A stretch of DNA of 64,000 nucleotides from contig NC_073409.1 of NCBI RefSeq assembly GCF_028641065.1, positions 20,398,001 through 20,462,000 on the forward strand, in the 5' to 3' direction. Both the position numbers and the translations under genes were made by a program. The DNA comes from Leucoraja erinacea (lineage: Eukaryota). The first letter of the stretch is position 1. Every line of letters begins with the position of its first letter. This document shows positions 21,818 through 62,010 of this stretch, one piece after another. The notes under the pieces are model-generated. The model searched no databases and was not told the origin of the DNA. It saw nothing but the letters and a program-made list of their open reading frames with translations.

Positions 21818-21843
21818 GATCAGTGTGATCATCTTTCCTCAAC

Positions 21844-30530: not shown

Positions 30531-30531
30531 C

Positions 30532-33725: not shown

Positions 33726-33729
33726 CGTT

Positions 33730-35775: not shown

Positions 35776-35974
35776 CCCTTCTCCATCTCCTCTTTTTTGC
35801 ATATCTCTATTTCATTTGTTCTACATCTCTCTACATCACCATCTATATCTCATGTCTCCCTCTCCCCTCTCAGTCTGAAGAAGGGTCTCGACCCAGAAAC
35901 GTTACCCATTCCATCTCTCCAGAGATGCTGCCTGTCCCGCTGTGTTACACCAGCATTTTGTGTCTGTGTTCATC

Positions 35975-36909: not shown

Positions 36910-36939
36910 TACCAACATTTCTAGTCAATTCTACCACAG
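36910..36939 (+). promoter_or_regulatory. Branch point + 3' splice acceptor for UGT-D
   Basis: TACCAAC...CTACCACAG|GATC, 26 nt before the ATG. Confidence 0.65.
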
Positions 36940-36965
36940 GATCAGTGTGATCATCTTTCCTCAAC

Positions 36966-38576: not shown

Positions 38577-39122
38577 TTTATTTTTCCCTTGGTATATTTT
38601 GTTCTTTCAAATTAATCATATAAAGTTTTTCATGCCTTTGATCCACGGAGTCTCCTTTCCTCAAGACATTGATTCAACATATGCTAATAAAAGCCAGAAA
38701 GGTGAGTGAAATAATAACCTTTGTGCATTGATATGCAGATGAAAAGTGTAAACAGCTGAACCTCATTTTCCTGAAGGCTTAAATTTACTGACAGTTATTC
38801 ACAATGAAGTTTCCTTTGGTTATCTGGGCACAAACCTTTATGATTCACTGACAGAGTGGACCTTTACTGCACTATTCCCTCTTCCAATCAACCATGACAA
38901 CTCTCACTCTCAATCTGTCAGCATGTTTGCCTTCGTTCCAGTGCCCCATTATTGTCGTACAATATCATAGTGAGCCTCCTTTACACTTTAGAGATACAAT
39001 GTAGAAACAGACCCTTCGGCCCATTCAGTCTGCGCCGACCAGCGATCACTCCACACACTAGATAGACACAAAATGCTGGAGTAACTCAGCGGGTCAGGCA
39101 GCATCACTGGAGAAAAAGACAG

Positions 39123-41193
39123 TGCACGCTCTGTCGCACCTCTGAACAAAACTGAACTACCCACTGTCCAATCATTTGCAAATCCACTCACTGCCCCCCC
39201 CCCCCCCCCCCCTCAACTGCAACACCCCCTCCCCACTCACCACACGCACTGTTAACCGGGACAACCTCAGATCTCTCCAGCCTGCCCCCATCCCACCACC
39301 CTCTCACCATGCCAACTCTGCCCTCCTCAACAGCCGATCGCTCAACAATAAAGCCCCGGCCCTCCATGAACTAATCCTTGACAACACTCTGGACTTCCTT
39401 CTGCTCACTGAAACCTGGCAACAACCAAATGACTTCTTCTCTCTCAACCAAGCATCCCCCCTGGTTTTAACTACATCTCCAAACCCCTCCCCTCCCGCCG
39501 TGGAGGTGCCCTCGCCGTTATTTTCAATCAGACCTTCCGGATCACAGAACTCACCCTCCCCCCAGTATCATTATTTGAATTCCTCGCTTTCAAAACTCTT
39601 TCCTCCATTACAGTCATCCTCATTTACCTGCCACCTAAACCAAACCCCTCCTTCCTCTCCGATTTCACTGAACTCCTCACACTAGCCTCATCTCTCTCTC
39701 CACGTCTGCTGCTACTCGGTGACTTAAATATCCACATGGGTTCCTCCACCTGCAAGCTCTCATCTGAATTCACCATTTTACTGGACAACTTCACTCTCAC
39801 CCAACATGACACCTTCCCCACCCATGATAAAGGACACATCCTCGACCTGGTCTGCTCCACAAATCAACTGGTGCTCGACCTCCATCCATGCCTCTTTCCC
39901 CTCTCTGATCATAAACTCATACGGTTCACCATCCCTTCTCCCACCCCCCGCTCCCGCCTCCTCAGAGAAATCACCTTCCGTAATCTAAAATCCATCGATC
40001 CCCACCATCTCCCTGACCTGCTCCCCACCACTCTCCCCCTGGACTCAACCCCCATCTCACCTGATGATCTCACAAACCATCTCAACTTTACCTTGTCTAC
40101 CTCCCTCAACACTCTGGCCCCCCTCAAAACAAAAATCGTAACTTTTAACACCTCTTCACCCTGGTACACACCTGCACTCCGTAAGTTGAAACAGACTGGC
40201 TGCCAACTTGAACGACTCACAAAGAAATCATCTCTCACAGTCCACCATGAAGCTTACAAATTCCACTTCACTGCCTACAAAGACGCCCTCATTGCTGCCA
40301 AATCTACCTACCTCTCCACCATCTTCACCGACCCCTGACAAAACCCCAGAACCCTCTTCTCCACAGTGGGCAACCTCCTCAAGCCTCGGACCAACACTCT
40401 CCCTACCTCTACTCCGGATCTCTGCAACTCATTCCTCCACTTTTTCGCTGATAAAATTAACATAATTCATCAATCTTTATCCCCTGTATCTGACCCCCAG
40501 CATCTACTCCAGCACCTGCCAAGGCCCCTCTTCTCCCCATCTCTACTGACCTCCCGACCCCTCCTCCACACTGCCTCCTCTCCCAGTTTAACCCGGTCAC
40601 CCCTCCTGAAATCGCCAAACTCATCAGCTCTTCCAAACCCACTACCTGCTCCCTTGACCCCCTCCCCACTCCCCTAGTGAAGTCCTGCCTCCCCGTCCTC
40701 TGCCCCTACCACACTAACCTCTTCAACTCCTAACTGTCCCAAGGAACTGTCCCCTCCGCCTTCAAAACTGCTGCTGTCCCCCCAATTTTAAAGAAACCTG
40801 GTCTGGATCCCTCCTCTCTCAACAACTACCGCCCAATCTCAAACCTCCCCTTTCTTTCTAAAACCCTGGAGCGTATCGTCACATCACAACTTCAATCCCA
40901 TCTCCATGCCAATAACCTATTCGAACCCCTCCAATCTGGTTTTCGCCCCCTCCACCGCACAGAAACCGCTCTCCTCTAAGTCCTCAACGACCTCCTCACC
41001 TCTGCTGACACCGGTTGCCTTAACATCCTCATCCTCCTCAAACTCAACCGCGATAAAACATAATTCCTCCTCATAGGCTCCAAATCCATACTCAGCAAAA
41101 TCAATAATCCCACTCTCACCATCGACGGCACCATTGTCTCCCCATCTCCCCAGGCCCGCAACCTTGGCGTGATCTTTGATTCCACCCTCTCCC
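39123..41193 (+). mobile_element. L2 LINE, duplicated copy, left part (interrupted by L1)
   Basis: Matches ~25265-27729 with an internal deletion near 41040. Confidence 0.9.
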
Positions 41194-41555
41194 TTTTTTT
41201 TTTTTTTTTTTTTTGTTTATTTTATTAGAAGTTAATACAGCACAAAACAGTACAGTGGCACCTAATTTTAGGTCCCAACTATGTAATACCGTAATCCATT
41301 CTATGTACAACTTCTAGTTTTATGTTATAAGAAGGAAGTAAGCAGAACAAGAAAAAGAAAACAATAGAAAGGGGAAAAAGTGGAAAAATAGATGGTAGAG
41401 AGTAGAAAAACGTGAAGTGGGTATATAAAAAATAAAAAAAGGAAGAGAGAAAGTGGAAAGTAGAAATAGAAGAGAAGGCCCCTTAAAAGAGAATTTTTCA
41501 GATCTGTATTCTGAAATGTAGCTCTATCCGCGTCATGAACTGAAATCAGCAATCC

Positions 41556-44500
41556 TTACGGCACCGCTGCGTCACATGATTCCAAAAAGTCGATGAAAGG
41601 AGACCAACTCTTTAAGAATTGGTCATATTTATCTATTAGTCGGATTCTCATTTCTTCAAGGCGTGCTATGTCCATCATATTCCTAATCCACATTTTAACA
41701 GTTGGTGTGGTTGTATTTTTCCAAAATTTAAGTATCAATTTCTTTCCGATTATTAACCCATAATTAAAAAAAACATTTTGATCTTTATTTAAATTGGTAT
41801 CTTCTCCTATTATTCCAAATATAATCCATTCCGTTTTGGGTTCTATTCTTGACTTGAAAATCTTTGTAAATATATCAAATATATCACTCCAAAATTTATT
41901 CAACTTTGTACATCCAACAAATGAGTGTGTTATATTAGCGTTTTGAAACAAACATTTATCGCATCCGGGAGAGACGTTTGGATAAAATTTATTCAACCTC
42001 GTTTTTGAATAATATAGTCTATGTAATAATTTGAATTGAATTAAATTATGTCTTGCATTAATAGAACAGTTATGTGTATTCATCAAATACTTTTCCCATC
42101 TATCCTTCGAGATCTTTATCATTAGCTCTTGTTCCCAATCTTCCCTTAATGCTTCTGTTGAGGGTGATTCTCTATTTAATATATTATTATAAAAGTATGA
42201 TATTAATTTTTGTGAATCAGCCTTAATATTCATTGCTTCTTCTAAAGGATCTAAAAATATAGTTTGAAATCTATGTGTATATTTCTTCATAAAGTCACAT
42301 ACCTGTATATATTTAAAATATTGATTATCCTTCAATTTAAATTTTAATTTTAATTGTTGAAATGATAACAGTTTGCCCACTTCATACATGTCCCCTACTT
42401 TCCTAATCCCCAGTCTATCCCATTGTTGATATGTGTTGTCGATGAGAGAAGGTTTGAATGCGGGGTTGTTCAATAGTGGGGTTAGTACTGATAAATTATT
42501 TAATTTCAAGGATACTTTTATTTGTTTCCAAATTCTTATTATATTGTGAATAATTGGGTTCTTCTTATATATTATACTATTCAATTTTATCGGTGAGAGC
42601 AGGATCGTTCCTATATCGTGCGGATAGCACTCCTCTTTCTCCATTCTTATCCACTCCAACTGCTGAGTGGAACTATCCAGCCAGTATATTATGTTCTTAA
42701 TATGCACTGCCCAGTAGTAATATATAAAGTTAGGTAATGATAAACCCCCAACTTCTTTAGATTTGCACAAATGCTTTCGTTGAATTCTATGTGTTCTGTA
42801 GTCCCATATAAAATTAGTGATAGTGGAATCTAATTTTTTGAAAAAATATTTTGGAATATATATTGGGATCGCTTGAAACAAATATATTAATTGTGGTAAG
42901 AAAGTCATTTTTATAGCGTTAATTCTACCTATCAATGAGAGTGGAAGCGTTTTCCAAAATTTAATCGTATCATTCAGTTTATTTAATAGTGGTATAAAAT
43001 TGGCACTAAATAATGATTTGTGTCTTCTCGTAATTTGAATACCCAGGTACTTGAATTTTTCTGTTGCAATTTTGAAGGGGAATTTTAGTAAGTGTCTCGA
43101 ATCCTGTGGTTTTAAAGACATAATTTCGCTTTTATTCCAATTTATTCTATATCCTGAAAAAGAGCCGAATTCCTCAATTAGTGTTAATAAGGTGGGTATA
43201 CTCGTTTGTGTATTAGTAATATATAAAAGGATATCATCAGCGTATAATGAAATTTTATTCTTTGAGTCCTTGCTGTTATATCCGTGAATATTCGGGTGAT
43301 TTCTAATCCTTTCGGCCAGCGGTTCTATCATAAGGGCAAATAGCAATGGTGATAAGGCACACCCTTGCCTATTACCCCTTGATAAGTAAAATTTTGGAGA
43401 TAGCGTATTGTTAGTTAATATTCTTGCCGTAGGTCTATCATAAAGTAGTTTAATCCATCTAATAAAATTCTCTCCCATATTAAATTTTTGGAGTACCTTG
43501 TATAAATACTGCCATTCTACTTGATCAAATGCCTTCTCTGCATCCAACGTGACCACTGAGATATCTTCATTGTCCTTCTTATGAGAGTACATTATATTAA
43601 AAAGCCTTCTCAAATTATTAAATGATTGTCTTTTGGGTATAAATCCCGTTTGATCCGTATTTATTAAATTGTTAATATAATTATTTAGCCTTCTAGCTAG
43701 AATCTTTGCTAAAATTTTCTGATCCGTATTTAGAAGTGATATAGCTCTATAAGAACCAGGCTCATCTAAATCTTTATCTTTTTTTGGTATAAGCGTTATT
43801 GTTGCTTCTGCTAGGGTTTCTGGTAGTTTATTTTCAGTATAAGCCTGCGTGTATAAATTAAATAATCTTGGTACAATTGACTCCTGAAATCTTTTATAAA
43901 ATTCATTACTAAAGCCATCTGGTCCTGGGGTCTTCCCATTTTTCAATGAGTTTATTATTTGTTTTATTTCTTCACTAGTAATCCGTGCTCCTAATTGCTC
44001 TTGTTCTAAACTATCCAATTTTGGGAGCTTGCAATTATCTAAAACATTTGTAAATTTACTTACATCTGTCTTTATTTTGGATGTGTATAAATTATGATAA
44101 AATTGGGCAAACCTCTTATTAATATCCTTAGGCAATGTTAGAAACTCACCATTGTCCGATTTAATTTTTGTAATTGTTTTTTCCTTTTCTCGTTGCTTCA
44201 GTTGCCTCGCAAGCAGTTTATGTGGCTTATCCCCAAATTCGAAGTGTGCTTGTTTTGTAATTTGGAATAATCTTATTACTCTAGCCGATAATATTCTATT
44301 GACTTTATATTTCAGTAAAGTTATCTTATTATGTTTATTTATGGTTGGGTCAGTTGCATTGTCCAGTTCTAGTAATTTTATCTTCTGTTCTGTCCGCTGA
44401 AGTTCTCTTTTATTTTCCTTAATTTGAAAACTTTGGTAAGAGATTATGACACCGCGAATATATGCCTTGAAGGTTTCCCATAATAGCGGTGCAGAAATAC

Positions 44501-45366
44501 CCGGTGTGTCATTTATTTCGAAAAAAAGTTTTGTTTGTTCTTTTATATACTCATAACCCTGCGGGTTATTTAATATGTGTGCATTGAACCTCCAAAAAGG
44601 CTTTATACTCGGCATTCCCTCAATTTTAAGTATAAAAGTCAATGGTGAGTGATCAGAAATAATACTATTATGATATGATGGTTTATTCGTATACGGGATC
44701 AATTTTGTGTCCAGTAAGAAATAGTCAATTCGCGAATAAGTTTTGTGAACTGATGAATAAAATGAGTATTCCCTACCACTTGGATTTGCTATTCTCCAAA
44801 CATCAGCTATGTTATTATTTTTTTATATAAGTATTTAAAAATTCACAGGTCTTGGTTTTAACAAGACGCTTCCCTAGCTTTATTGATTTATCTAAATATG
44901 GATCTATAACACAATTGAAATCTCCCCCCATTATTATATTTTGAAAATTATGCTCTGCGATTAAATCTATTATTTTCCTAAAAAATTGTGGGTTATCAAA
45001 ATTAGGCGCGTAAATATTTATCATAGTTAATGGTGTATTGTAAATTTCTCCTGTGACTATAACATATCTTCCCTCTTTATCAGATATGGAATTCTTTAAT
45101 TTAAAAGGTATGCCCTTCCGAATTATAATGGCCGTGCCTCTTGCTTTAGAGGTGAATGAGGAGTAATAGGTTTGACCTATCCAATTTGCCCTTAATCTGA
45201 TCTGAGTTTGTTGTTTCAAATGTGTCTCTTGTAGGAACGCAATATCCATATTTAATGATTTTAATTGTGCCAGAATTTTACCTCTTTTAATTGGCTCATT
45301 CGCACCTCTGATGTTCCAACTACAGAAGGTGAGACCTCCGGTATTTATTCGACTATTATCTTGCAT
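41556..45366 (-). CDS. L1 ORF2 (APE endonuclease + RT + Cys-rich domain), one +1 frameshift in a T7 run at 44818-44824
   Basis: SWNIRG, FLQETH, NIYAPN, GGDFN, SRIDYF, SDH; KTPGPDG, DAEKAFD, RQGCALSP, LYADD; C-x2-C..H..C motif. Confidence 0.92.
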
Positions 45367-46294
45367 TGGCTATTATTACCAGACTGTATGCTTCATGTGA
45401 TGCAGCCAAGTACCTCAGAATCCCGAATCCAGAGTTGTCCTTCATAATTTCTACAGTAGTTCTACATCTCCTGGCATTATTAAACATAATTGAGGGGAAG
45501 GGAAAAACATAAAATAAAGTGTACATAAAAATGATTAAGTCATGCAACACATAATTGTGAATAAACAAAAAAAGTGAATGTAATTTATCAAAAAAGCGAT
45601 AAATTACAAAAAAGCCACCTAAGGTAGCTAGATTTGTTTTAAATTTGACCTCCGTCGATGAAATTATGCACTGGGCCCTATCCCCCTGTTAGAATTTGAC
45701 CCAACGTTAGTCGGTTCCCTCTAATTGTTACCAAAATTATCATATCAGGTCATCGCTGAACAGTTTAAAATAGAATAAAATAAAAGGGAAGGTAGAAGAT
45801 TTGGATTAAAATAAAAATAATTATGGGTTAAAATACCTCATCAAAAATTACACTTTTCATTTACCTGTATGTTAGTTAATTCATTATTAGTATTTAGTAA
45901 TTAAAATATATGTCTAACCTCCCCCACCCTTCCTGCTATATAGTTAATCGTGTTAGTATAGGACATTACGCCTTTAACGTTGGTTGAGTATATTGTGCGT
46001 AATTGGTTAATTAGTTAGTTAGTTATATGTGTAAATAATAGGTCATATAGTGTGAAACAGATGCCTCTTATCATGGCCATTTCAAAAGGCGACAATCTCA
46101 TAGTTCTCCGTGCTTCAGAGTTTGGTGACGTGCTTGCAACCTTGAGCTTTCATATGTGCTTTCAGTTCAGAAGATTAGTTCGGCCTGTGTTATTAAATAG
46201 CACATTCTCGGCAGATAAGACTGTCTGGTAACTGTCTGAAGCGTTCAAGTGTTGTAATTTGAACAGAAAAAACAGTTTCCAGACAAAATGTCAA

Positions 46295-47392
46295 TTAATC
46301 TGATCCTGGTTGAGTTTTGTTTAAAATCTCCTCGGCGTATTTGCAAGCAGCGTCCGGGTCGGTAAATGAGCGTTGCTTGCCCTTAAATGTAATTAGCATT
46401 TTTGCTGGATAGATCACGCCATAACGAACTTCAGAATGTCCATATAAAACACTGCTTGCCCTTTTAAACTCGCGTCTTTTTGCCAGAATTTCCCGAGGGT
46501 AATCCCTGTAGAATCTTACGATATTATCAGCGAATGTAAGATTTTCTCCATAGTTTATCTGCTTTAATAGAGTTTCCACAGTTGAAATATCTAGAAACTT
46601 TACAATAATTTGCCTTGGATTAGCATTATCGTGTTTTTGGAGGCGACCCACTCGATGAGCCAGATCTATCTTTGGTTTTTCAGGAAGTTTGAAAACATCT
46701 TTAAGTAGATTAGTAATAACATCACGCATTTGAAGGCCGTGTTCCGCACCCTCTTTAACTCCTATTAATCTCAGATTTTGTGTCCTAGACCTGGCCTCTA
46801 AATCTTGACATTTCTCATTCAGTTTATTCGTTAACTCCCAATTCGTATCGTGTTGTTTTTTCAGACCTGTTATCTCTTGGCTCATCTGTTCCATCTCACC
46901 CTCCATTTCTTCCATCAATTTTTCCATGTCTGTTAATTGCTTCAGCAGGATGTCATGTTTGTTGTTATAATCTCTCCGCATACTTTCCATTTCCTTCGCG
47001 GTGCTGGACTCCAAATCTTTAAACTGCTGATTCAGGGCTACATAAAGCTCTTTTACTTCGCCACAGCTATTATCAATTTTCTTAGAAAGATTGCCCTCCA
47101 TAGTGGAGAAGTTATTCTGAATTGTAGAATTCATTTTGGCAAGTTGCTTCTGAAGATCTTTACTAATGTCTTTAAGAATATTAGCTCTTACCGTTTCTTC
47201 CCAGCTTTTCATTTCTTTCTCCTTTGTATCACTTCTCGCAGCCATATCGCTTGTAGGTTGTTGAGGTTCCAGCTCCTCTTCCAAACTTTCAAACGTGAGT
47301 TCAGGGGTAGTTTCAAGCTCATCCAGAGCTTTTTGGAGCTGGAGACTGATTGTAGTTTTCTTGGGTCCTCTCTGACCTCTTCTCTTTCTCAT
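46295..47392 (-). CDS. L1 ORF1 (coiled coil + RRM + CTD), 365 aa from the first ATG
   Basis: DLEARSR.QNLRLIGVKEG, IDLAHRV, PRQIIVKF, FYRDYP, YPAKMLI. Confidence 0.9.
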   Translation of the reverse strand: MRKRRGQRGPKKTTISLQLQKALDELETTPELTFESLEEELEPQQPTSDMAARSDTKEKEMKSWEETVRANILKDISKDLQKQLAKMNSTIQNNFSTMEGNLSKKIDNSCGEVKELYVALNQQFKDLESSTAKEMESMRRDYNNKHDILLKQLTDMEKLMEEMEGEMEQMSQEITGLKKQHDTNWELTNKLNEKCQDLEARSRTQNLRLIGVKEGAEHGLQMRDVITNLLKDVFKLPEKPKIDLAHRVGRLQKHDNANPRQIIVKFLDISTVETLLKQINYGENLTFADNIVRFYRDYPREILAKRREFKRASSVLYGHSEVRYGVIYPAKMLITFKGKQRSFTDPDAACKYAEEILNKTQPGSD

Positions 47393-47694
47393 CCAGTTTT
47401 TACGATAAGATCGTTTTAAATCCCAAAACCACCAGTACCGTTTGATGGAGTCAGTACCCTTGACGTTCAGCAAACCTGATAAGAATTTTTAACTCGATCC
47501 TGGCATGGGAGTCGACTTTAAACGCGATTTGTCTGGAGGAGAGCTCAGTGCAGCTGCCTTCACTGCTTCATAGCAGCCACCGGAAGTTGCCAAGCCTAGC
47601 TTTCTGTTACCTCATTTAGCACAGTGCTAAAAACCTACCTCTTTGACCAATCGTTTGAAGGTCTATGATAAAACAGTAGCTTATTTCCAACAAT

Positions 47695-47905
47695 ACATGA
47701 AACTGCAGATGCTAGACTCTTGAACAAAATACAAAGTACTGGAGAAACTCAGCAGGTCAGGCAGCATCTGAGGAGGGTAGAAGCAAGGAACTGCAGATGC
47801 TGGTTTACAAAAGAAGACATAAAGTGCTGCAGTAATTCAGTGGGTCAGGCAGCATCTCTGGAGGACATGGATAGATGACATTTCGGGTCAGGAACCTTCT
47901 TCATT
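47695..47905. repeat. MER6/Penelope-end-like repeats
   Basis: GAACTGCAGATGCTGG..CTGGAG..ACTCAG..GGTCAGGCAGCATCT motifs in tandem. Confidence 0.55.
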
Positions 47906-49179
47906 TTTTTTTTACATTTGACTAAGCTCCACAAGGCAGCCGAGTCATTTTATTGTGTAATTAAAACACAATATAAATGCAAATTGTTGTTTGATTGCAT
48001 ACAAGCACAAATTAGTCAAGGGTCAAAATAGATTTGGAGAGATGCAAGTAACAATTTTCATGCTGAAAGCCCAGATCAGATCACACTTTGGGACTTCACA
48101 CCTGTGGGAGAATGGTCTCAAAGGGGCTTACAGATCGAAATTAAATCACAACAGCATCTGGGTTAAAAGAGTAAAATATGGGGGCAAACTGCACCTCTCA
48201 GGTTTATATTCAGTTGTTTGGACACTGTGGAATATAGATGCAAATGTAATCTAAATGTAAGAAAGGAAGATTTCAAACATAGCATATGACATTAGGACGC
48301 ATTTTGCACTCAATGAATTAAGAATATTTGAAGATAGTCATAACATGCTGGAGCAACTCAGCGAGACACACAGTATCACTGGAGAAAAAGAATAGGTGAC
48401 CTTTTGGGTCAAGACCTTTCGTCAGACTTTTTCAGTCCTGAAATGTCATCTATTCATTTTCTCCAGGGATTCTGCCTGACCCGCTGAGTTTCTCCAGTAC
48501 GTTGTATTTTGTTCAAGCACTTTTTTTATCTATCTTCGGTATAAACCAGCAACTGCAGTTCCTTCCTACTGAGCTCTTTCCACAGAAATTGCTTGGTCAA
48601 GAGTTAGTTGAAAGATGACATGATATTTTTTTCCATTGAGCAAACATATCGAGGCTGATGGGTCCAATGGGTAGATGATACCCTAACTGAGTGACACAAC
48701 AGGTTTGAGGAACGAAGTGACTCATGGATTGCAATCATTTAGTTAGTTAGTTTAGTTTAGAGTCAAGTGTACAATCAAAAGCTTTGGATGCGTGCTATCC
48801 AGTCAGCAGAAAGATAATAAATGATCACAATTGAGCTGCCCACAGTGTACTGGGAATAAGGTATTAATGTTCAGTGTAAGGTACAGTCAGCAAAGTCTAA
48901 TCAAGGATAGTCCAAGGGTCACCAAAGAGGCAGATAGTACAGCACTGTTCTCTGCTTGTGGTAGGATGATTCAGTTCCCTGCTAACAGCTGTGCTGTCTG
49001 CGTGACTGTGGGATTCATGTGTGAAAGAATTAGCCCTCCAGATGCTGAAAGTTATTAATATCTGATACATTCTTAAGGAATATTTAAACTTTATTAACTA
49101 ATCAACAATTATTACCAACAATTATAATTTTAAAATATATTTTTGTACCTATGAAGGCAATATAGATGGCCTGGGCATA

Positions 49180-49550
49180 CTGTAAATGTAGATGGGTCGG
49201 TGAGTAAGTTTGCTGATGACACTAAAATTGGAGGAGTTGTAAACTGTGAGGAAGGCTGTCAGAAGATACAGTGGGATATAGAACAACTGGAGAAATGGAC
49301 AGAGTAATTGCACATGGAATTTACCTGAGCAAGTGTGAGGTGTTGCACTTTGGGAGGTTGAATGTCAGGAGAGAATGTACAATGAATAGCAAGACCTTTA
49401 GCAGCATTGACATGCAGAGGAATTTCGGAGTCCAAGTTCATAGCAGCACAAGTGGATGGGGTGGTAAAGAAGGTATATGGTATGCTGTAATTGTGAGGGG
49501 CATTGAATGTAAGAGTCAGTAACTCATGATGCAGCTCTATAGGACTTTGA
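49180..49550 (+). mobile_element. Old CR1 RT fragment
   Basis: SKFADDTKIGG, KCEVLHFGR. Confidence 0.7.
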
Positions 49551-49924
49551 AGTTTGTAAAGGCTCCTATAAGTTCATCAGACATAATAAATGAAGTTGAT
49601 TGCATCTTATTTGATTTTATTCTGTAGAATTGTTGCAAATTTGGTTCAGTAATCACTTGGTATTTGTAAATGATACCCTTCTGTCTTGGCTGCCATCTGA
49701 CACACACACGATTGATTAACAATCACAATTTATTTTCCTGTGCCTATCAAAAAACAAATGCAATACTTTCACTGATCTGTGACTCAATTTTCATAAGATG
49801 TTTTGCAATATTGTGAATAATTTGGAAAGACGCATCAAATACAGGTATAACTTCCTTTTTATTAATTTGAAAGAACTTCAAAGACTCTATCCCAAGAACA
49901 AAATATACCAAGGGGAAAAAAATC

Positions 49925-51538
49925 TCACTCCGTCTTTTGCTTTTTCCCACAAACAATACGACAAAGTTTCTTCAGTGTTCCAACCACCAACACAGTGAGC
50001 AGGAGTAACACAGACAACAGAAAGATCATCACATCTACACAATAGTAAGCGTACCAGGGGAGTCGGTGGGATTCTGAGCGCAAATGCCCGGCTCCTTTGT
50101 GTCGGGCAACGTACTCAACCCAGAAAACGGCTCTCTCCATTGGCGACTCTGGCTGGTCCCGATGGAGAGCAGAGAGTCTCTTCATGTTGTCCCCGTAAGA
50201 TGTGCCGTTTATCACCTCGTTGAGTGCCTGCAACAGATCTGTAGAGTGCATCGTTGCAACATTGATCACTTTTGCTGCTCCTCGGGATTCAAGTCTGACT
50301 ACATTGTCAAACTGGTCAAAAAGCAGAGGCATGCCGATCACTGGCACCCCATGGTAGATGGCTTCATAAATCCCATTGGTGCCTCCGTGTGAAACAAAGG
50401 CTCGTGTGTTGGGGTGACCCAGCAGGTCGTTCTGAGGGATCCATTTTGCCATGAGTGTATTATTCCCTATATTGGGAGGGGTCTCACCTTCATATCTCCA
50501 GATAACCTTCTGGGGGATTTGAGATAATGCTTCTGCTATTTTCATTGTAATCTCCATTGGTAAAGAGTGGACAAAGGTCCCCAATGACATTACAACAAGT
50601 CCATGTTTACCTGAGCTTTGGGCAAACTCCTCAAACTCTGCTGCCAGAGGCCGTGCTGGTTTACACTGGAAGCCTCCGATGTACACAATGTTTGGCATGG
50701 TGGGTCTTGGGAATTCAAACACAAAATCCACCCTCATCAGCCACACATCAGCTCTGAGGAGAATCGACTTGATGTCCGTGTCTGGTCCCAGATACCGATG
50801 GCAGATTTCATTATAAACTGGATGTGTTAAAAACTCTGAAATCAAGCGGTGAAAGAGACTGTGAATGATATTTTCTGTTCTTTGGAGAAAATCCATTTTG
50901 CCTGTGAGAAGTGAGCCAGGAAATGGGATGTAGGAAAGTGGTGACGGGGCAGTGAGAAAATGGGCTTCCCCTGTCATCTGCCATCGAACGTTGAACACCA
51001 GCGGCACTTTTAAATAATACGCAAGCATTGGCCCGGTACCAAATATAGGATCTGTGAGTATTAGGTCAAAGTTTGCATTTTCAAATTGATTCAACAAAGT
51101 TTTGTTTTCAAAAATCGCAATGTTGAAATTTTGATGTAGTCTATGGAATTTGTACATAAACGTAGCCATTATATTTTGTAATATTATGTTGCCCCATAGG
51201 GTGTGACCATTCTGTAACCTGTCCAGTGACATTAGCACAATTCTTTCCATCACTTCTTTCCTTGAAGGTGCTTCAATGTTTTCTTGTGCTTGAACTATGA
51301 TGGTTTGATACAGATCGGGTCTCCCTTTGATGTACCAGTTTGCGGAGTAACAAAGCATAGTGATGTTGTGGCCACGAAGGATCAGCTCTTCCATTAGAAT
51401 TTTCATATTAATCCAGTGACTTCCATCAACAGGCACAACCAATATTCTAGCTGCTTGGGTAATTGGACAAGACAGGGCGAAGATGATACCAAGAACAAAT
51501 GTGACCTTTGATCTGCTTCTCCATCCAAGACCACCCAT
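49925..51538 (-). CDS. ugt5: UDP-glucuronosyltransferase, UGT5-like, single coding exon (copy E, 537 aa)
   Basis: Intact ORF with all UGT motifs, TM helix and KKQKTE. Confidence 0.95.
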   Translation of the reverse strand: MGGLGWRSRSKVTFVLGIIFALSCPITQAARILVVPVDGSHWINMKILMEELILRGHNITMLCYSANWYIKGRPDLYQTIIVQAQENIEAPSRKEVMERIVLMSLDRLQNGHTLWGNIILQNIMATFMYKFHRLHQNFNIAIFENKTLLNQFENANFDLILTDPIFGTGPMLAYYLKVPLVFNVRWQMTGEAHFLTAPSPLSYIPFPGSLLTGKMDFLQRTENIIHSLFHRLISEFLTHPVYNEICHRYLGPDTDIKSILLRADVWLMRVDFVFEFPRPTMPNIVYIGGFQCKPARPLAAEFEEFAQSSGKHGLVVMSLGTFVHSLPMEITMKIAEALSQIPQKVIWRYEGETPPNIGNNTLMAKWIPQNDLLGHPNTRAFVSHGGTNGIYEAIYHGVPVIGMPLLFDQFDNVVRLESRGAAKVINVATMHSTDLLQALNEVINGTSYGDNMKRLSALHRDQPESPMERAVFWVEYVARHKGAGHLRSESHRLPWYAYYCVDVMIFLLSVLLLLTVLVVGTLKKLCRIVCGKKQKTE

Positions 51539-51564
51539 GTTGAGGAAAGATGATCACACTGATC

Positions 51565-51594
51565 CTGTGGTAGAATTGACCAGAAATGTTGGTA
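51565..51594 (-). promoter_or_regulatory. Branch point + 3' splice acceptor for UGT-E
   Basis: TACCAAC...CTACCACAG|GATC on the minus strand, 26 nt before the ATG. Confidence 0.65.
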
Positions 51595-51977
51595 AGTGAC
51601 AAACATTGGCAAAAGGAGAATAAAGACACAAAGTGCTGGAGCACCTCAGAGAGGTAACTCATCACTTCAGGGATAGATTACATCAGAAGTTCTCGTGGCA
51701 GAATTAGGCCATTCGGCCCATCAAGTCTACTCTGCCATTCTATCATTGCTAATCTATCTTTCCCTCTCAACACCATTCTCCTGCCGTCGCCCCATAACCT
51801 CTTGACTCCCGAATCATTAACTATTCCTGTTTGCCAGCGATGGTGCTTGACCCACTGAGTTAGTTCGCCACCGGTTTCTGCCCACATCCCGAAGAATTGC
51901 GGATTTGTAGTTTAATTGGTGTCTCTATATTGCCTCTAGTGTGTAGAGAGTGGATGGGAAATTGTGATAATACAGAA

Positions 51978-52538
51978 CTGAGACCAATTCTGGAGTACGG
52001 CGTACAATTTTGGTCGCCCAATTATAGGAAGGATGTCAACAAACTAGAGAGAGTACAGAGGAGATTTACTAGAACATTGCCTGGGTTTCAGCAACTAAGT
52101 TACAGAGAAAGGTTGAATAAGTTAGGTCTTTATCCTCTGGAGCGCAGAAGGTTAAGGGGGGACTTGATAGAGGTCTTTAAAATGATGGGAGGGATAGACA
52201 GAGTTGACGTGGACAAGCTTTTCCCATTGAGAGTAGGGAAGATTCAAACAAGAGGACATGACTTGAGAATTAAGGGACAGAAGTTTAGGGGTAACATGAG
52301 GTGGAACTTCTTTACTCAGATAGTGTGTGAAAGGAGCTTCCAGTGGAAGTGGTGGAGGCAGGTTCGACTTTATCATTTAAAAATAAATTGGATAGTTATA
52401 TGGATTGGAAAGGAATGGAGGGTTATGGTCTGAGTGCAGGTAGATGAGACTAGGGGAAAATAATTGTTCGGCACGGACTTGTAGGGCCGAGTTGGCCTGT
52501 TTCCGTGCTCTAATTGTTATATGGTTATGTGGTTATAT
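51978..52538 (+). mobile_element. CR1 LINE 3' fragment nested in a SINE
   Basis: RPILEYGVQFWSP..LERVQRRFTR..TRGH; (TTATATGG)-type tail. Confidence 0.88.
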
Positions 52539-52614
52539 AACTAGCGTGAACGAGTGATCGATGGTCTGGGTGGACTCAGTGGGCCAAATGGACTATTTCC
52601 GTGCTGTATCTCAA

Positions 52615-52768
52615 AGGTGTAGTCGAGATAATTGTGGGGGTTAGTGGGTTTGTTCTTGACATCAGTGGATCATTTGTCCCCTTGTGGTGAGGTTGATGAA
52701 ATGAAAGAGTTTAGCCTGGGTGGAGCAGGCAGCTCCGATGCTGTCCGATGCTGTAGTCAATGTGGAGA

Positions 52769-52811
<43 letters not shown>

Positions 52812-53130
52812 ATGGTGCCAGTGTACGCTTGGTTCAAGGCCAATTTGACATAACCAACAAAAGTAACAGGCATAGCTGGAGCCCATGCGAGTGCCAATGA
52901 GTTGTTGAGGGTGGGGAAAGATTTTGGAAGGTGGTGGAGAGTGTAGAGGAGAACCGATTTGGTTTCTGTTGAAGGAGAACCATAAGGGCCCTGAGCCCTT
53001 TCAAGTGGGGAACAGTGGAATATACTGAACGTCCATGCTGAGGCAACGGGACCTTGGAATTGAAAGTTGTTGAAGAGCTGGTGAGGTGGGTCGGATGTAA
53101 ATCAGAAGGGACTGGACAACGGGTGGGACA
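52615..53130 (-). mobile_element. Penelope-like RT relic (with a G38 run at 52773-52810)
   Basis: TRMGSSYAC-like motif and IGAACSTQAKL; paralogous to 21430-21740 and 2555-2790. Confidence 0.7.
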
Positions 53131-53334
53131 AGGTAATTTAGTTTAGTTTGGAGATACAGCACGGAAACAGGCCCACCGGCCCACAGAGTCCGCGCCGACC
53201 AGCTATCCCCACACACTAACACTATCCCACATACATTAGGAACAATTACAAGTTTACCAAGCGAATTAACCTTCAAATCTGTACGTCTTTGGAATGTGGA
53301 AGGAAACCGGAGCACCCAGAGCAAGCCACTGGCT

Positions 53335-53855
53335 TACCACTAGGTGGCGCCAACAATAGCTGCCTCGCCAACAGACTGTCTGTCCTTTCCTTTTGTTGTA
53401 TGTTTTGTATGTGTTAAATGAATGTTTTAGTGTTCTTTAAGTTGTTTCATGCGGGGGAGTGGGGGGGACTTTTTCTAATCTCACCACAACGGAAAAGCAT
53501 TTTTTTCCATATCGCATCTCTGCGGCCGAACATCGAGGAATTGGTGGCCTTTGCTGGAGTCCGACCATCGTGGAGCTTGTGGTCTCTGGTTAGAGACCGA
53601 TTTCGGGAGCTCCAAGCCGCAAGAGCTTGGACCGCCCTGACTGCGGATGGTTCGACTGCCCCGACCGTGGGAGAATAAAGAGTAAGGAGATTGGACTTCA
53701 TTGCCTTCCATAACAGTGAGGAATCTGCTGTGGTGGATGTTTATGTTACCTTTTATGTAGTTGTGTGTCTTGGTGCTTTTGTTTTTGTATGGCTGTATAG
53801 TAATTCGAATTTCACTGTACCTTCATTGGTATGCGTGATAATAAATTGAATTTGA
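53335..53855 (+). mobile_element. Non-autonomous element with Rex1-like 3' tail, nested in a SINE
   Basis: Interrupts the SINE that starts at 53135; ends TTTCACTGTACC..GTGATAATAAA-TTGAA. Confidence 0.5.
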
Positions 53856-53883
53856 AAACCCACGCAGGTCACGGGGGAGAATG

Positions 53884-55417
53884 TCAGTGGGCGGGGGGGG
53901 GGGGGGGGGGGGGGGGGGGAGCTTTCTGGAGCGCTAGTATGGTTGTTGTGGGTTGAAGGGACTGGTTTCCAGAGGTCTAGTATGGACATTGTCGGCCAAA
54001 TGGGGTGGCAGCTCAGTCGGCTCGGCTGGTGGGCTGGCAGTTGACTCACGGCTATTCCTTGAAATTCCATTTAAAGCAGGGTGCAAGGCCATTGAATTCA
54101 AGTGCAGTTTCCTGCCACTTCAAGCAGGGTGCAAGGCCACTACATTCAAATGCAGTTTCATACCATTTCAAGCAGGATGAAACCACCATAAAACCACACA
54201 AAACACCACATAAACACCACACTCACAGATCAGTAGACATTCAGTGCGTTCAGTTGATTTACAGATCAGACAGAGTCGTGATCTCTCCTTCCCCCATCTT
54301 GCAGAGACTGAGCCACACCCACACTTCCGGGTTTTATAATCCCTCCCCTCCCACCGGAAGGGGCGTGGACATCATGGCGTGATTGACAGGAGAGAGATTC
54401 TCAACATTTTTTGAACACTAATAACACTTTTATGTTTCATTGAAGGAAGAATCATCTGCACCTGATGAGCGGAGGGGGACTGAGTTTTATATAAAATCAA
54501 TATACAGTGCAAACAGTAAGTTAGCAAGTTTAGACATTTAATCATTTCCCATTTCAAACCAACCACTACCAACCATTTGCTGTGCTTTATTTCAAACCAA
54601 CCATCACCAACCATTTGCTGTGCTTTATTTCAAGCCAACCACATTATCATTTTCAAACTACATTAAGGGCACTCAAGGTCAGTAAAACCACACTCAGTTT
54701 AGTAGACATGTGTTCAGTGTTATTCACAGCTCAGACTGAGACGTGACCCTCTCACTCCCCCATCCTACAGAGACTGACTGAGGCACTCAACACTTACATA
54801 GAAACATAGAAATTAGGTGCAGGAGTAGGCCATTCGGCCCTTCGAGCCTGCACCGCCATTCAATATGATCATGGCTGATCATCCAACTCAGTATCCCGTA
54901 CCTGCCTTCTCTCCATACCCCCTGATCCCCTTAGCCACAAGGGCCACATCTAACTCCCTCTTAAATATAGCCAATGAATTGGCCTCAACTACCCTATGTG
55001 GCAGAGAGTTCCAGAGATTCACCACTCTCTGTGTGAAAAAAGTTCTTCTCATCTCGGTTTTAAAGGATTTCCCCCTTATCCTTAAGCTGTGACCCCTTGT
55101 CCTGGACTTCCCTAACATCGGGAACAATCTTCCTCCATCTAGCCTGTCCAACCCCTTAAGAATTTTGTAAGTGTAACTTCCGGGTTTTATAGTCCCTCTG
55201 GTAGGGGCATGGCCTTCAGGAGAGAAACACAACTTTTTTTAAACACTAATAACACTTTTAATTTTAAGCGATGGGAAAAAAAGCTCTTGTCCTGCACAGC
55301 GAGGGGGACTCTGAGTAAGATGGCCAAAAATTACAGCCCTAAGTGGCAATGTTCTTTTCTAAAATCAATATACAGAACAACAGGAAGTGGTCAAGATCAG
55401 ACTTTTACTAATATAGA
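53884..55417 (-). mobile_element. Unclassified repeat (possibly Helitron-like) with internal 48-bp minisatellite
   Basis: Minus-strand start TCTATATTAGTAAAAG; duplicated internal module; same family as 58056-59158. Confidence 0.45.
54796..55170 (-). mobile_element. Young CR1 3' fragment (same subfamily as 31388-32339)
   Basis: Near-identical to 31395-31770; (ACATAGAA)n tail. Confidence 0.9.
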
Positions 55418-55427
55418 TTAATTAGAG

Positions 55428-56720
55428 ATATGTCAAAATGTAACGATGGAAGAGTAGGTTTGAAAACGAGACATTAAAGGGGACGGATATCAAGGAACAG
55501 GTTGTATGGGATTCAGGAACTATAACAATGAAGTCTGTGCTTGAGACGGGAGTCATGGCCAATGCGTAGGTGTGAGAGCTGGGCTGGCGCCTGGCCTCAG
55601 CACGGAAGGATGAAATGGTTAAGTGATTAATGCTAGTTTACAACAGCATCAGCTTTGTCAGCGGACATCGGGATTGTTAAAACAGCTCTTATTCTTCATC
55701 AGAGATCAGGGGAACATTGCAACAAACGGAAGTGTGTATGCGAACCCACAACAAAACATGGGATAGATACAAAATCTGGAGTATCTCAGCGGGCCAGGCA
55801 AGATGTCTGGAGAGAAGGAACAGGTCGAGACACTTCTTCAGACAAAACATGGGCTTCAGTTTAAAGCAAGTAAAAGCAAAAACAGTCAAATGGGCCGGGA
55901 ATGGAATATTGAATTTGGAATATTGACTATTGAGTGAAATCTGGGGAGTAGAAATGTGTGTGTATGGAGGATACAAAATATATGTGTTTAGATAATATCG
56001 AGTATGGAAACCATTGGTGATGAACCGAGATACGAGGGAAAAAATGATAAATAGAAATCATGCATTGATACAATATAGAGATGGGGAATTTAGAAGTGTT
56101 TTCAACTTATATACTCATCAATTAATTCAATGTAATTTGAATGTAAGGAAGATGTGACTGCGGTGGGACTTGGACTCTCAGACACTGCGGCCGCTTCCCG
56201 TCCCCACAAGAAAACAAAACACCGGCCCCCTAACACCTTGCTCCCTTGCCCGCGAGTAACACAGGAAAATACTTACGGACAAATACAACACCAAAGCACC
56301 CGCCCCCAAACTGTATTTTAAAATAGCCGCAAGTATGAAAGTTCATTTGGTAAATACAATCACGATGGAAGTTTCCTCACCAATGTCGCTAAAATTTCGT
56401 CGAAATGATGAACGATTTTCAGTCGATGGGAACAAAGTCTAAGAGTTTTGGTTGTGTAATGTTTGCTTTGATGCGTTTATTTTACATTCCGAGTGCATAA
56501 CATGTTTGGTTGGTCTTTTTTTTTGGCAAGGATAAATTCAGTTGACTTGTTGCCTCGGAGTGAACACAAAATTCAACCTCCTGACTCTGTTACCCTAGAC
56601 TTCCAGGAATACAAACTGATCAAGTGATTTTTACTTTTCCGTAATAAAAATATTAATGAACCAGGTGGATTTTATAACAATCCAGAGATTGCATGGGCTT
56701 TACATTCAAACGTTGCTTGG
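55428..56720 (-). repeat. Conserved inter-UGT block, copy 5 (donor degraded, internal deletions)
   Basis: Matches 3010-4400; GC box kept at ~56300 but CCCAAG|GTATGT lost at ~56110. Confidence 0.8.
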
Positions 56721-58056
56721 CAGTAGAGAGTAGTGGTGGATGCGTTTTTGTTTTGACCAGGGCACTGTGACCAGTGTTGTTCCACAGGGACAGTGCTGGG
56801 ACCTTTGCTGTTTGTGAATATATAAAACATTTGAATATATAAATTATTTGAGTTTATAAATGATTTGGTGGGTTGATTAGTAAGTTTGCAGACATGACAA
56901 ACATTGGGCAGTTTACAAACCCAGCAGTATGAGTATTTTAGTTTAGTTTAGAGGTACCGTGCGGAAACAGGTCCTTCGGTCCATTGAAATCGCGCAACCA
57001 GCGATCCGTCCACATTAACACTATCCTACACACAAAGGACAACTGACAATTTTCACCCAAGCCAATTAGCTTCCACACCTGTGATCTTAGGAATGTATGA
57101 GAAAACAGGAGCACCTGGAGACATCCCATGCGGTCACAGGGAGAACGTACAAACTCCACACAGACAGCACCCCTAGTCAGTATCAAACCCAAGTCTGGCG
57201 CTGTAGGGTGCAACTACCACTGCGCCACCGTACGGCCCTCTATTAATATTAATTTATCTAATCTGAATGGATATTTTTTAAGGTGGAGAATGGCAGATTC
57301 TTGATTATTACGGGTGTCAGGGGATTTGGGGAGAAGGCAGGTGAATGGGGTTGTGAGGGGAAAATAGACCAGTCATGATTGAATGGCACAGTAGTTCAAT
57401 GGGCGGAAGGGATGAATTCTGCTCCGATAACTTCAGAGCTGTAAGGTATTCTCGACCGAGGTAAAGCTTCATTGTGACTAGCACAAAAGACAGGTCCACA
57501 CGGGGTTTGTGTTCCAGAGCAAGAGCACGTTTAATCTGCAATCATTGCCTTTTATCTTGAAGGTCACTTGACCTCAGTCACGAGGCTCATGCACGAGTTT
57601 CTGTTACATTGATTGCAAAGACATCACATACATCACAAGAACTGATTAGTACCCTTTTCTATTGTTAAATTAGTTTTCTGCCTGATTTATAGTTTAGCTC
57701 CCTGGTCAGTCAATGCATGCTGCATTCTGACAAACACCTTTCACAGTTTATTCAATGGTTACAAGTCTTGTCATCTAATCTGTCCTTCCCCTCTACTCAT
57801 TGCAAATAAGTGGTGCTGCAGGTAGGGTTGCTGTTGCATAGCACCGGAAACCAGGTGAGACCCTAAAATCTGGTACTGTCAATGTGGAGTTTGCACATTG
57901 GCCCTGTGACCATATGAGTTTTGATCGGTTGCTTCGGTTTCCTCACACACGCCAAAGATGTGTGGGTTTGCAGGTTAATTGGCCTCTAACTTGCCCCCAA
58001 ATATGTCGGGAGTGGATGAGAAAGTGGGATAACAGAACTAGTGTGATCGATGATCA

Positions 58057-58310
58057 GCAGGGTGCAAGGCCACCAAATTCAAATCCAGTTTCATACCATT
58101 TCATGCAGGGTGCAAGGCCACCAAATTCAAAATTCAAGTACAGTTTCATGACTCGTCAAGCAGGGTGCAAGCCCACCAAATGCAATGTTGTTTCATGCCA
58201 TTTCAAGCAGGGTGCAAGGCCACCACATTCAAATGCAGTTTCATATCATTTCATGCAGGTGCAAGGCCACCACATTCAAATGCAGTTTCTTACAATTTCA
58301 AGCAGGGTGA
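58057..58310. repeat. ~48-bp minisatellite (5-6 units)
   Basis: GCAGGGTGCAAGGCCACCA.ATTCAAAT.CAGTTTCAT.CCATTTCA. at 58057, 58105, 58160, 58207 and 58255. Confidence 0.85.
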
Positions 58311-58693
58311 AACCACCATAAAACCCACACAAAACACCATAAAAAACTCCACACACAGTTCAGTAGACTGTTCAGTTGATTCACAGGGTGGACAGAGTCG
58401 TGACCTCTCCCTCCCCCACTTTGCAGAGTCTGAGTCACAGCCACACTTCCGTGCTTTATAATCCCTCCCCTCCCCCACCGGAAGTGGCGTGGCCTTCATG
58501 GCGTGATCGACGGGAGAGAGATTCTCAACATTTTTAAATACTAATAACACTTTTATTTTTCATTGATGGAAAGAATCCTCTGCACCTGATGAGCGGAGGG
58601 GGCCTGAGTAAGATGGCCAAAAATCACATCCTTAAGTGGTAGCGTTTTATCTAAAATCAATATACAGTGCAAACAGGAAGTTGTCAAGTTTAG

Positions 58694-58815
58694 ACCAACA
58701 ACCATTTGCAGTGCAGCATTTCAAAGCAATCTCCACCAACAACCATTTCCAGTGCAGCATTTCAAAGCAACCTCCACCAACAACCATTTCCAGTGCAGCA
58801 TTTCAAAGCAACCAC
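58694..58815. repeat. ~38-bp minisatellite (3 units)
   Basis: CCAACAACCATTT.CAGTGCAGCATTTCAAAGCAA x3. Confidence 0.85.
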
Positions 58816-59164
58816 ATTTTCATTTTCAAACCACATTAAAGGCACACATTTGAGTAGACATGTGTTCAGTGTTATTCACTGCTCAGAGAGGCATGACGTG
58901 ACCCTCTCGATTCCTCCATCTTGCAGAGACTGACCGAGGTACAACACTTCCGGGTTTTATAGTCCCTCTCCCCTCCCACCAGCAGGCACAGCAGAGAGAA
59001 TCTCAGCATTTTTTACACATTAATAACTCTTTTACTTTTCATCGATGGGAAAAATCCTCTTGTCCTATGCAGGGAGGGGGACTCCGAGTAAGATGGCTAA
59101 AAACTCACATGAAACAGAAAACCAGGAAGTGGTTAAGATCAGAGTTTTAGTAATATAGGTGAAA

Positions 59165-60243
59165 TGGAGATATGCAAAAAACTAATGGTGGAAGGGTAAC
59201 GTGTGAAAAAGAGACATCAATGGGGCGGATATCGAGGAAACATGTTGTATGGGATTAGAGGACTGTAAAATTGGAGTCTGTGCATGAGTCCGTGGAGTCA
59301 TGGCCAATGCCTATGTGTGAGAGCTGGGCTGGCGCCTGGCTTCAGCACGGAAGGATGAAGTGGTTTAGCGATTAAGCTAGTTTACAACAGCATTACCCTT
59401 GTCAGTGGACATCGGGACCGTTAAAGCAGCTCTCATTCTTCATCAGAGATCAGGGGAACATTGCAACAAACGCAAGTGTGTATGCGAAGCCCACAACAAA
59501 ACATGGGATAGACACAAAAAGCTGGAGTATCGCAGCGGGCCAGGCAAGATCTCTGGAGAGAAGGAACAGGTCGAGACACTTCTTCAGCCAAAACATGGGC
59601 TTCAGTTTAAAGCACGTTAAAGCAAAAACAGTCAAATAGGCTGGGAATGGGATAATGGATTTGGAATATTGACTATTGTGTGAAATCTGGGGAGTAGAAA
59701 TGTGTGTGTATGGAGGATACAAAATATATGTGTTTAGATAATATCCAGTATGAAAACCATTGGTGATGAACCGAGATACGAGGAAAAACATGAGAACAAA
59801 TGTTGCATGAAACAAAATAAGTTCTCGGCAAGTTTGTTCAAGATAAAAATAAATTTCAATATTGCTATTCGTTGCCGAAATGATAAATAGAAAGCATGCA
59901 TTGATACAACACCGAGATGGTGGAGAATTTGGAAGTGTTTTCAACTTACATACCTTGGGTATCAGTGAATTCGATGTAACCTGAATGTCAGAAAGATGTG
60001 ACTGCGATGGGACTTGAACCTGCAGCTGCAGTGCCTTCACCCGCTGCTGAATTGCCAGTGAAACAATCTCCTTCACTGGAGCCTGGGACACTGGACCGCT
60101 TCCAGTCCCCACAAGGAAACAAAACGCCGGCCCCCTCACACCTTGTTCACTTGCCAGCGAGTAAGGTAAATACTTGCGGACAAATACAACACCAAAGTAC
60201 CCGCCCCCAAACAGTATCTAAAAATAACCGCAAGTATGAAAGT
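59165..60243 (-). repeat. Conserved inter-UGT block, copy 6 (GC box ~60205, donor with exon end 59954)
   Basis: Reverse complement of 29447-30530. Confidence 0.85.
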
Positions 60244-62010
60244 TAATTATAATAACAATAAATTGATTTTATATAGCGCTTTTCAAGCTCAAAGTCGCTT
60301 TACAAGGCAAGGCAAGAAACAAAAACAAAAATAAATACCAAACAAAACAAACCAAAAAATGAGCAACAATTCAAGCACAGATGAAAAGGGAGGGGGACGT
60401 GAGGCTAAGGATAGGCAGAGGTGAAGAGATGGGTCTTGAGGCGGAACTGGAAGATGGTGAGGGACTCAGAATTGCGGATCAGTTGGGGAAGGGAGTTCCA
60501 GAGCCTGGGAGCTGCCCTGGAGAAGGCTCTGTCCCCAAAACTGCGGAGATTGGATTTAATATTAATAATAGTAATAAATTTTATTTTCGGGCGCCTTTCA
60601 AATCTCAAGGTCACCTTACAAAGATTAAACAGAAGAGAAAAAAAACATATAGTCGGAGAAAAATAAATAATAAGGACATCATCGATACACAACTTAAAGA
60701 TAGAAATCATTCCAAAGATACAAAATAAAAAAAAATAAAAAAAACACAATGTGAAGAGAGAGCAGAGGCAGCTAAAGCGCGCCAGGGTCCACTCCCACTT
60801 CCGACAGCCATCTTGGACACAGACTAACAAAGTACTTTACACACAGAAACATCATCCCCCCTAAGTGGTTACCACTGTGGGGGAAGGCACAAAAGTCCAG
60901 TCCCCAACCCCAGTTCTCCCAAAAGTCAGGCCTATTAAGGCCACCGCTGTTGCCTCAACGGAGGCCCGATGTTCCTGGCCGTTCTAGCCGGGTGGTCTTG
61001 CCCCGGCGTCGGGAGAGTCCTCACAGCGGCTGGGCCACCTGGAACAGCCGCTTCCTAGCAGGGGATTGTCGGCTTCCGAAGCCGACAAGGACGCACCGAG
61101 TTGGAGCTCCCAGGCTCCCGATGTTAATGTCGGCGCCGCCCGCTCCGCTCCGCAGACCCGCAGCCCGGAGGTGTTGCTCTCGGCGGTCCAGCTCACCGGA
61201 GCTCCAGCACGTCGATCTAGCGCGGCGACCCAGGCAAGGCATCGCCCGCTCCGCTCCGCGATGGCGCTCCAGCACTGTGTCGCCAACGAAGCCGAGGTGC
61301 TGGGCGGTCCCCACCAGGAAACGGCGCTCCAAGCCCGCTGGTAGGCCACGAGGCCGGGCCGACGGGCAGCCCAGAAAAAAAGCTGCCTCGCCAACCAGGT
61401 AGGGACCTAGACGTAAGGTTACCTCATTCCCCCCACAATAAGAAGTCCATTTCTCCGAGAAAACGCCGAACAAAACTAACTAAAAACTGAAAAAAAATGA
61501 ATTAAACGGACGGCTGCTGGTTAGCAGCCGTTCCCCAAGATGGCTCCTCCTCCTCGGTGAGGAGGATTTGTGGATGGAGAGGAGACCGGCTGATGTGGAT
61601 CTGAGGGACCGGGAGGGTTGGTAGGGGGAGAGGATGTCAGTGAGATATGGGGGGGGGGCAGATGGTGGAGGGCTTTGTAGGTGAGGACCAGGATTTTGTA
61701 GATGATCCGGTGGGAAATGGGAAGCCAGTGAAGTTATTTGAGGACTGGAGTGATGTGGTGCCAGGATTTGGTGTGTGATGAGTCGGGCGGCTGCGTTCTG
61801 CACCAGTTGGAATCGGTTGATGTAGCTGGAGCTGATGCCAAGGAGAAGTGAGTTGCAGTAGTCCAGTCGGGAGGAGATGAAGGCATGGATGAGTTTTCAT
61901 GAGTCAGCAGCAGGGGGTGTGAGAGAGGGTCTGATTTGGGCGATGTTGCGGAGGTGAAAGAAGGAGGTTTTAATGACATGGCGGATGTGAGGCTCAAGGG
62001 AGAAGGTGGA
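60244..62010 (-). mobile_element. L2 LINE, right part of the duplicated copy (inverted), with nested GC-rich element 60558-61563
   Basis: Reverse complement of 27717-29446; picks up exactly where 39123-41193 stops. Confidence 0.92.

Follow-up and report, generated by a model that had tools for sequence, protein, structure and literature searches.

We analysed a window of 64,000 nucleotides from Leucoraja erinacea (contig NC_073409.1, positions 20398001-20462000) together with 60 kb upstream and 77 kb downstream, a read of 201 kb in which positions above 64000 continue the window numbering into the same contig. Within it, a 14.4 kb segment carrying the detoxification gene UGT-E (a UDP-glucuronosyltransferase, UGT) lies inverted, as assembled, between two full-length L1 retrotransposons of opposite orientation, L1#1 and L1#2. 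The target-site duplications (TSDs) of the two elements are crossed, a tandem paralog gives the polarity of the change, and UGT-E has moved whole with its upstream exon. With a probability of about 0.75, we attribute the inversion to an ectopic homologous crossover between the two inverted L1 copies after both had inserted.

Target-site duplications are crossed between two L1 elements

The two elements and their flanks are arranged as follows.

41181-41195, plus strand: outer TSD1 copy, next to the L1#1 poly(A)
41196-47587, minus strand: L1#1, full length, 23 private substitutions
46927-47587, minus strand: identical 5′ tract, the first 661 nt of L1#1, equal to 62012-62672 of L1#2
47590-47604, minus strand: inner TSD2 copy, beside the L1#1 5′ end, with two extra bases at 47588-47589
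47590-62010, minus strand: unique interval that is inverted, 14,421 nt when the two inner TSD copies are counted
61996-62010, minus strand: inner TSD1 copy, beside the L1#2 5′ end, with one mismatch
62012-68407 (contig 20460012-20466407), plus strand: L1#2, full length, three private substitutions; 62012-64000 is the 5′ part inside the window
68408-68422 (contig 20466408-20466422): outer TSD2 copy, beyond the window edge, following the L1#2 poly(A)

A preliminary description of this stretch had placed a 15-mer against the poly(A) end of L1#1, an inverted copy with one mismatch at the 5′ end of L1#2 and an uninterrupted version at 27717-27731, and we recovered all three. The sequence at 41181-41195, TCCACCCTCTCCCTT, adjoins the poly(T) of L1#1; read in reverse complement, 61996-62010 repeats this 15-mer with one mismatch and is separated from L1#2 by a single G. 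Across the 201 kb, TSD1 has two exact copies, at 27717 and 41181, and a third that differs at one position, at 61996; L1#2 does not end in a TSD1 of its own, the arrangement that the description had set against an inversion. What follows the poly(A) of L1#2 at 68408-68422 is GGAAGCTAGGCTTGG, the reverse complement of 47590-47604 (13 nt exact, 14/15 overall). The description had expected a 16-mer there; the duplication is present, but the 16-mer does not occur verbatim, the CA at 47588-47589 lying outside TSD2. Each L1 carries one TSD at its 3′ end and the TSD of the other element at its 5′ end, and the match scores are 3 and 5 for the elements' own pairs of flanks and 13 and 12 for the crossed pairs.

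These scores were set against other copies of the family, drawn from the best 40 of 160 candidates matching the first 389 nt of the element and therefore skewed to close relatives. We fetched 37 of the 38 other top matches; ten lacked one end in the fetched stretch and the other 27 were parsed with both ends. Twenty of the 27 have a TSD of their own of 6-19 nt (19 loci, L056 and L060 sharing flanks), three have a poly(A) without a TSD, and four have no usable 3′ end. Among 812 cross-pairings of 5′ and 3′ flanks, four score 12 or more, namely the swap between L1#1 and L1#2 and the pairing of L056 with L060, each in both directions; the latter two are one duplicated locus, and the next best cross-pairing scores 9. 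This control rules out a chance match between the TSDs. The full-length copies with poly(A) that are free of a TSD are L074, L079 and L087, in the last two of which private changes are also patchy; a search by exact patterns for swapped partners of L079, L087 and L074 gave 0 matches each.

L1#1 and L1#2 are 99.42% identical over 6396 alignment columns, with 33 mismatches and four gaps. Open reading frame (ORF) 1 is open in both (46295-47488 in L1#1), whereas ORF2 is split over two frames in L1#1 (45369-41556, break near 44824) and carries two stops and a one-base gap in L1#2. The two stops (L1 positions 3839 and 4875) are two of the three private substitutions of L1#2. The best PDB match of ORF1 is LINE-1 ORF1p (E 2.3e-9), its Pfam match being below cutoff. 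ORF2 contains Exo_endo_phos (2.8e-12), the N-terminal APE endonuclease, and RVT_1 (2.4e-45), and it is closest to LINE-1 ORF2p (E 1.7e-150, vs 5e-27 for R2). By ORF1, ORF2, the poly(A) and the variable-length TSD, the elements belong to the L1 clade of non-LTR (long terminal repeat) retrotransposons. The family is very young, several copies carrying no more than 1-3 private changes. Copies L053-L089 fall into two subfamilies separated at 46 sites, and two copies, L068 and L089, are mosaic between the subfamilies in a similar way.

A tandem paralog retains the ancestral order

The uninterrupted TSD1 site lies in one of two tandem duplication units.

17419-30949, plus strand: duplication unit A, with the first exon and coding exon of UGT-C, an L2-type element and a copy of the UGT-E first exon
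27717-27731, plus strand: empty TSD1 site within the L2-type element of unit A, aligning without a break to the two halves into which unit B is split
32342-41195, plus strand: duplication unit B, left part, 96.4-96.9% identical to unit A; holds UGT-D
58741-62010, minus strand (reversed): duplication unit B, right part, 95.7% identical to unit A

The repeat that contains the TSD1 site, presumably an L2, is broken in unit B. Its left side is recovered where 27572-27731 aligns with 41035-41195 on the plus strand (96.9%), and its continuation where 27717-30949 aligns with 62010-58741 on the minus strand (95.7%, 3274 nt), so that, as the preliminary description had claimed, the repeat resumes at 62010 in the order of unit A. 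Because the tandem paralog retains the empty site, the inverted order is the derived one. The flipping of the interval with UGT-E, proposed in the same description, is supported by the crossed TSDs and by the continuity of the paralog on either side of the break. Reversing the interval restores the L2 and unit B relative to unit A and makes genes B, C, D and E co-directional, with one another and with the UGT matches downstream. Co-directionality, on which the description had also leaned, is weak evidence alone, because the upstream UGTs are of mixed orientation and four point the other way. An inverted duplication was considered instead of an inversion and rejected: 47588-48300 has one full-length match in the assembly, and the right part of unit B is single and reversed. 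The inversion covers 14.4 kb or more; with an exchange at the 3′ tip, it could take in almost the whole of both L1 bodies as well (~27 kb).

Position of the exchange and competing explanations

In the course of events that we favour, a UGT unit would first have been duplicated in tandem, the copies now being ~4% diverged; two L1s would then have inserted separately, ~14 kb apart and at different times (23 vs 3 private changes); and the inverted copies would have paired and crossed over, leaving a short gene-conversion patch. Private substitutions, counted with three redundant L1 copies excluded, bear on where the exchange fell. L1#1 has seven of them in 662-1401 and ten in 5621-6314, L1#2 has zero in both, and a test of equal age on the total load of 23 vs 3 gives p = 9e-5. 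Coding changes on the side of L1#1 are non-synonymous in 12 of 16 cases, and two probes covering its private changes each have a single match in the assembly, in L1#1 alone. Together, the unequal load, the mostly non-synonymous coding changes and the unique probes indicate that the private changes of L1#1 resemble decay after insertion. An unsampled subfamily as their source was rejected on the same two probes. In the assembled phase the element ends carry 7 vs 10 and 0 vs 0 private changes (p = 0.47), whereas a switch in mid-element would give 0 vs 10 and 7 vs 0, for which the joint probability is 7e-6 under uniform decay. The exchange is most likely located in the identical first 661 nt or in the last ~63 nt plus the poly(A). 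Subfamily chimerism was tried for mapping the crossover and was uninformative, L1#1 and L1#2 differing at 3 of the 46 diagnostic sites.

At position 588 of the element (window 47000 and 62599) the two copies share an allele; of 25 exact matches in the whole assembly, two carry it, and these are the copies at this locus. An allele private to L1#1 and L1#2 is the expected mark of an exchange between them, in the form of a conversion patch linked to the crossover. We tentatively place the exchange in the first 661 nt, at somewhat less than even odds, and give a position in the last ~80 nt moderately lower odds.

Several observations weigh against the crossover as we have described it. Identity over 661 nt is unremarkable alone, since gaps of 650, 746 and 897 nt between differences occur too. 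L1#1 shows an uneven spread of private changes, with none in 3544-5620 (p = 0.005), and the same unevenness is seen in 3 of 15 other copies; such patchy decay makes private counts a noisy clock, so that the figure of 7e-6 overstates the case while its direction is clear. Both TSD pairs contain a mismatch (2 in 30 nt vs 1 in 289 in the controls, p = 0.024), which is odd if one insertion is very young and hints that both insertions are older than the L1#2 body implies. Further evidence on age comes from organism D, represented by assembled contigs of runs X17 and X19 (two samples of one study). Each run has one contig that covers 30-32 and 27-29 bases, respectively, on the L1 side, crosses TSD2 and continues into the flank, where there are three differences; the 31 bridging bases of our rule are reached in X17 alone, provided that the count starts at the TSD edge. 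The TSD2 junction is thus filled in organism D, and among the matches listed for X1, X3, X17 and X19 there was no empty-site contig, X1 and X3 having none over the TSD2 flank. Organism D and the assembly diverge by 0.56-0.76% over nine pieces; the shared junction makes the TSD2 insertion likely at least as old as that divergence, for which 16-21 private changes are expected. A crossover in the 5′ tract makes the L1#2 body the TSD2 element, and that body shows 3-5 private changes vs the 16-21 expected (P 0.002 or less); the 23 private changes of L1#1 fit the age expected for the TSD2 element. A crossover at the 3′ tip fits the ages but requires an exchange within ~80 nt and a separate conversion at 588. 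An extra event is needed either way, an overwriting of the L1#2 body in the one case (5′ tract) and the separate conversion at 588 in the other (3′ tip). Finally, all 24 runs listed are contigs, and no read was seen that spans a whole L1.

The strongest competitor to a crossover between two settled elements, although improbable in our estimate, is an exchange coupled to insertion in the germline, in which inversion and insertion were one event. It could take two forms: a nascent L1 at TSD1 may have engaged an older inverted neighbour at the 3′ tip, a form that we propose ourselves, or two simultaneous insertions may have exchanged second-strand partners. In its favour, the old body of L1#1 remains joined to the 5′ junction that is also found in organism D and the clean body of L1#2 to the other, only the 3′ flanks being swapped, and reverse transcription begins at the 3′ tip. 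Crossed TSDs with two poly(A) bridges are, moreover, the signature seen in tumours and cell lines in the portions of two reports consulted here (10.1101/2024.08.27.596794, 10.1101/2024.12.14.628481). The synchronous form, however, requires equal ages, at odds with 23 vs 3 (p = 9e-5) unless L1#2 was later overwritten, and in the single-insertion form the shared 588 allele requires an additional step. Ordinary recombination also suffices for two full-length L1s with 6.4 kb of 99.4% homology; in the part consulted, the cell-line paper excludes recombination in its cases partly for want of such homology (10.1101/2024.12.14.628481). That a new L1, 14 kb from an older inverted L1, swapped strands with it at the 3′ tip and flipped the old L1 body and UGT-E in one germline step is, specifically, a shade less probable again.

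An assembly misjoin, in which the genome is not inverted and the assembler switched within the near-identical L1s, is very unlikely: repeats of 6.4 kb that are 99.4% identical and belong to a family rich in young copies, the want of a spanning read, lone other-subfamily alleles in L1#2 at 2 of the 46 diagnostic sites (which polishing could cause) and the three other full-length copies without a TSD speak for it, but undoing a mid-element join pairs loaded with clean ends (joint 7e-6 under uniform decay, vs p = 0.47 as assembled), the join must lie no more than 661 or ~80 identical bases away from unique flank, a distance that long reads would easily cross, and the 201 kb are free of N gaps throughout.

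UGT genes in and around the inverted interval

49925-51538, minus strand: UGT-E, intact single coding exon, 537 amino acids, Pfam UDPGT
59954-60250, minus strand: UGT-E upstream non-coding exon block, GT donor at 59953, upper exon limit unmapped
36966-38576: UGT-D, inside the left part of unit B

The two UGT-E exons are separated by an intron at 51565-59953, with an AG acceptor before 51564, as read from the splice signals in the sequence. One X17 contig skips 8389 nt with CT..AC ends (GT-AG on the minus strand), linking the upstream exon (59954) with the coding exon (51564); this skip was not among the matches listed for X1, X3 and X14. Since the spliced upstream exon lies inside the interval, UGT-E moved whole with its own first exon. 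UGT-E, UGT-C and UGT-D fall in one 90% cluster whose named members are skate proteins annotated as UDP-glucuronosyltransferase 2C1-like or 2A2-like, with named relatives from Amblyraja radiata among the matches, and gene B is a 5′-truncated fragment (tblastn, amino acids 136-511). The first-exon block is itself duplicated, with seven full-length copies in the 201 kb. Two such blocks stand upstream of UGT-D, at 29442-29792 and 32714-33068, one its own and one a 97% copy of that of UGT-E; that copy was left by the tandem duplication, and UGT-D may therefore have two first exons.

Elsewhere in the cluster, four minus-strand UGT copies extend from ~39 kb upstream of the window to window position 7896, with plus-strand copies on both sides. 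This block is an older inversion or an inverted duplication; its edges show no clear inverted repeat pair, merely short matches of 70-84%. Among the UGTs at 21844, 36966, ~103 kb and ~128 kb, the 3′ parts of distant paralogs are 90-91% identical and the whole genes ~83%, a hint of homogenisation or of stronger constraint on the C-terminal half. At 11612-13890, adjoining the truncated UGT-B, is an element with 511-nt direct repeats (94%) and a gag-like frame at 12668-13264, presumably Gypsy-like; no TSD was seen at the repeat ends as aligned. Other repeats in the read are a pair of 560-nt direct repeats at 79611-87129 (98.4%, ~7 kb apart), possibly a young LTR element, a tandem array with a ~50-nt unit at 87619-88285, and, before the window (15.3-11.9 kb upstream of it), a minisatellite spanning 3.4 kb.

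Relation to known rearrangements and significance

The kind of event and its TSD test are already published, and the locus is a new case of a known rearrangement. L1 recombination-mediated inversion (L1-RMI / RRMI) was described in human and chimpanzee by Lee et al. 2008 (PMC2603318) with, in the sections considered here, the same definition and TSD test, and the 13 human-specific cases given there average 14,294 bp. As in those cases, L1s of opposite orientation stand at both breakpoints with TSDs crossed between them (PMC2603318). By the same sections, the present case differs in that the genome is skate-type rather than primate and the polarity comes from an in-cis tandem paralog (TSD1) rather than from an outgroup genome; both L1s are full length and young; the orientation is taken from the assembly rather than from polymerase chain reaction (PCR) or reads; and the exchange most likely lies at a tip, whereas that study saw no hotspot along the element (PMC2603318). 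Rearrangements from synchronous insertions, as portrayed in the portions consulted, likewise have two poly(A)-tailed bridges, each between halves of different TSDs, but they are somatic, mostly 5′-truncated and of one age, in contrast to full-length, highly homologous elements with an eightfold difference in private changes (10.1101/2024.08.27.596794, 10.1101/2024.12.14.628481). The gene arrangement resembles zebrafish Ugt5 in its tandem clusters and in one large coding exon behind a 5′ non-coding exon, a likeness by structure only, and differs from what is described in the part of that comparison considered here in that the first-exon block is duplicated (PMC2819257). No paper on this locus was found in the open-access literature by title or abstract start, which is not proof of absence.

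The effect of the inversion on UGT-E is probably small, because the first exon moved along, although the gene is now separated from the co-directional upstream first exons. By matching crossed TSDs between full-length L1s, inversions of this kind could be counted across a genome from a single assembly. The case would matter more if the insertion-coupled route at the 3′ tip were shown; if true, the inversion would parallel, in heritable form, the reciprocal L1-coupled rearrangements of tumours and cell lines. As it stands, the locus is an unusually complete, self-documenting inversion made by retrotransposons outside mammals, in which both TSD pairs, the in-cis ancestral copy and the conversion mark are readable, and it shows the ongoing remodelling of a skate-type UGT cluster by a young L1 family.

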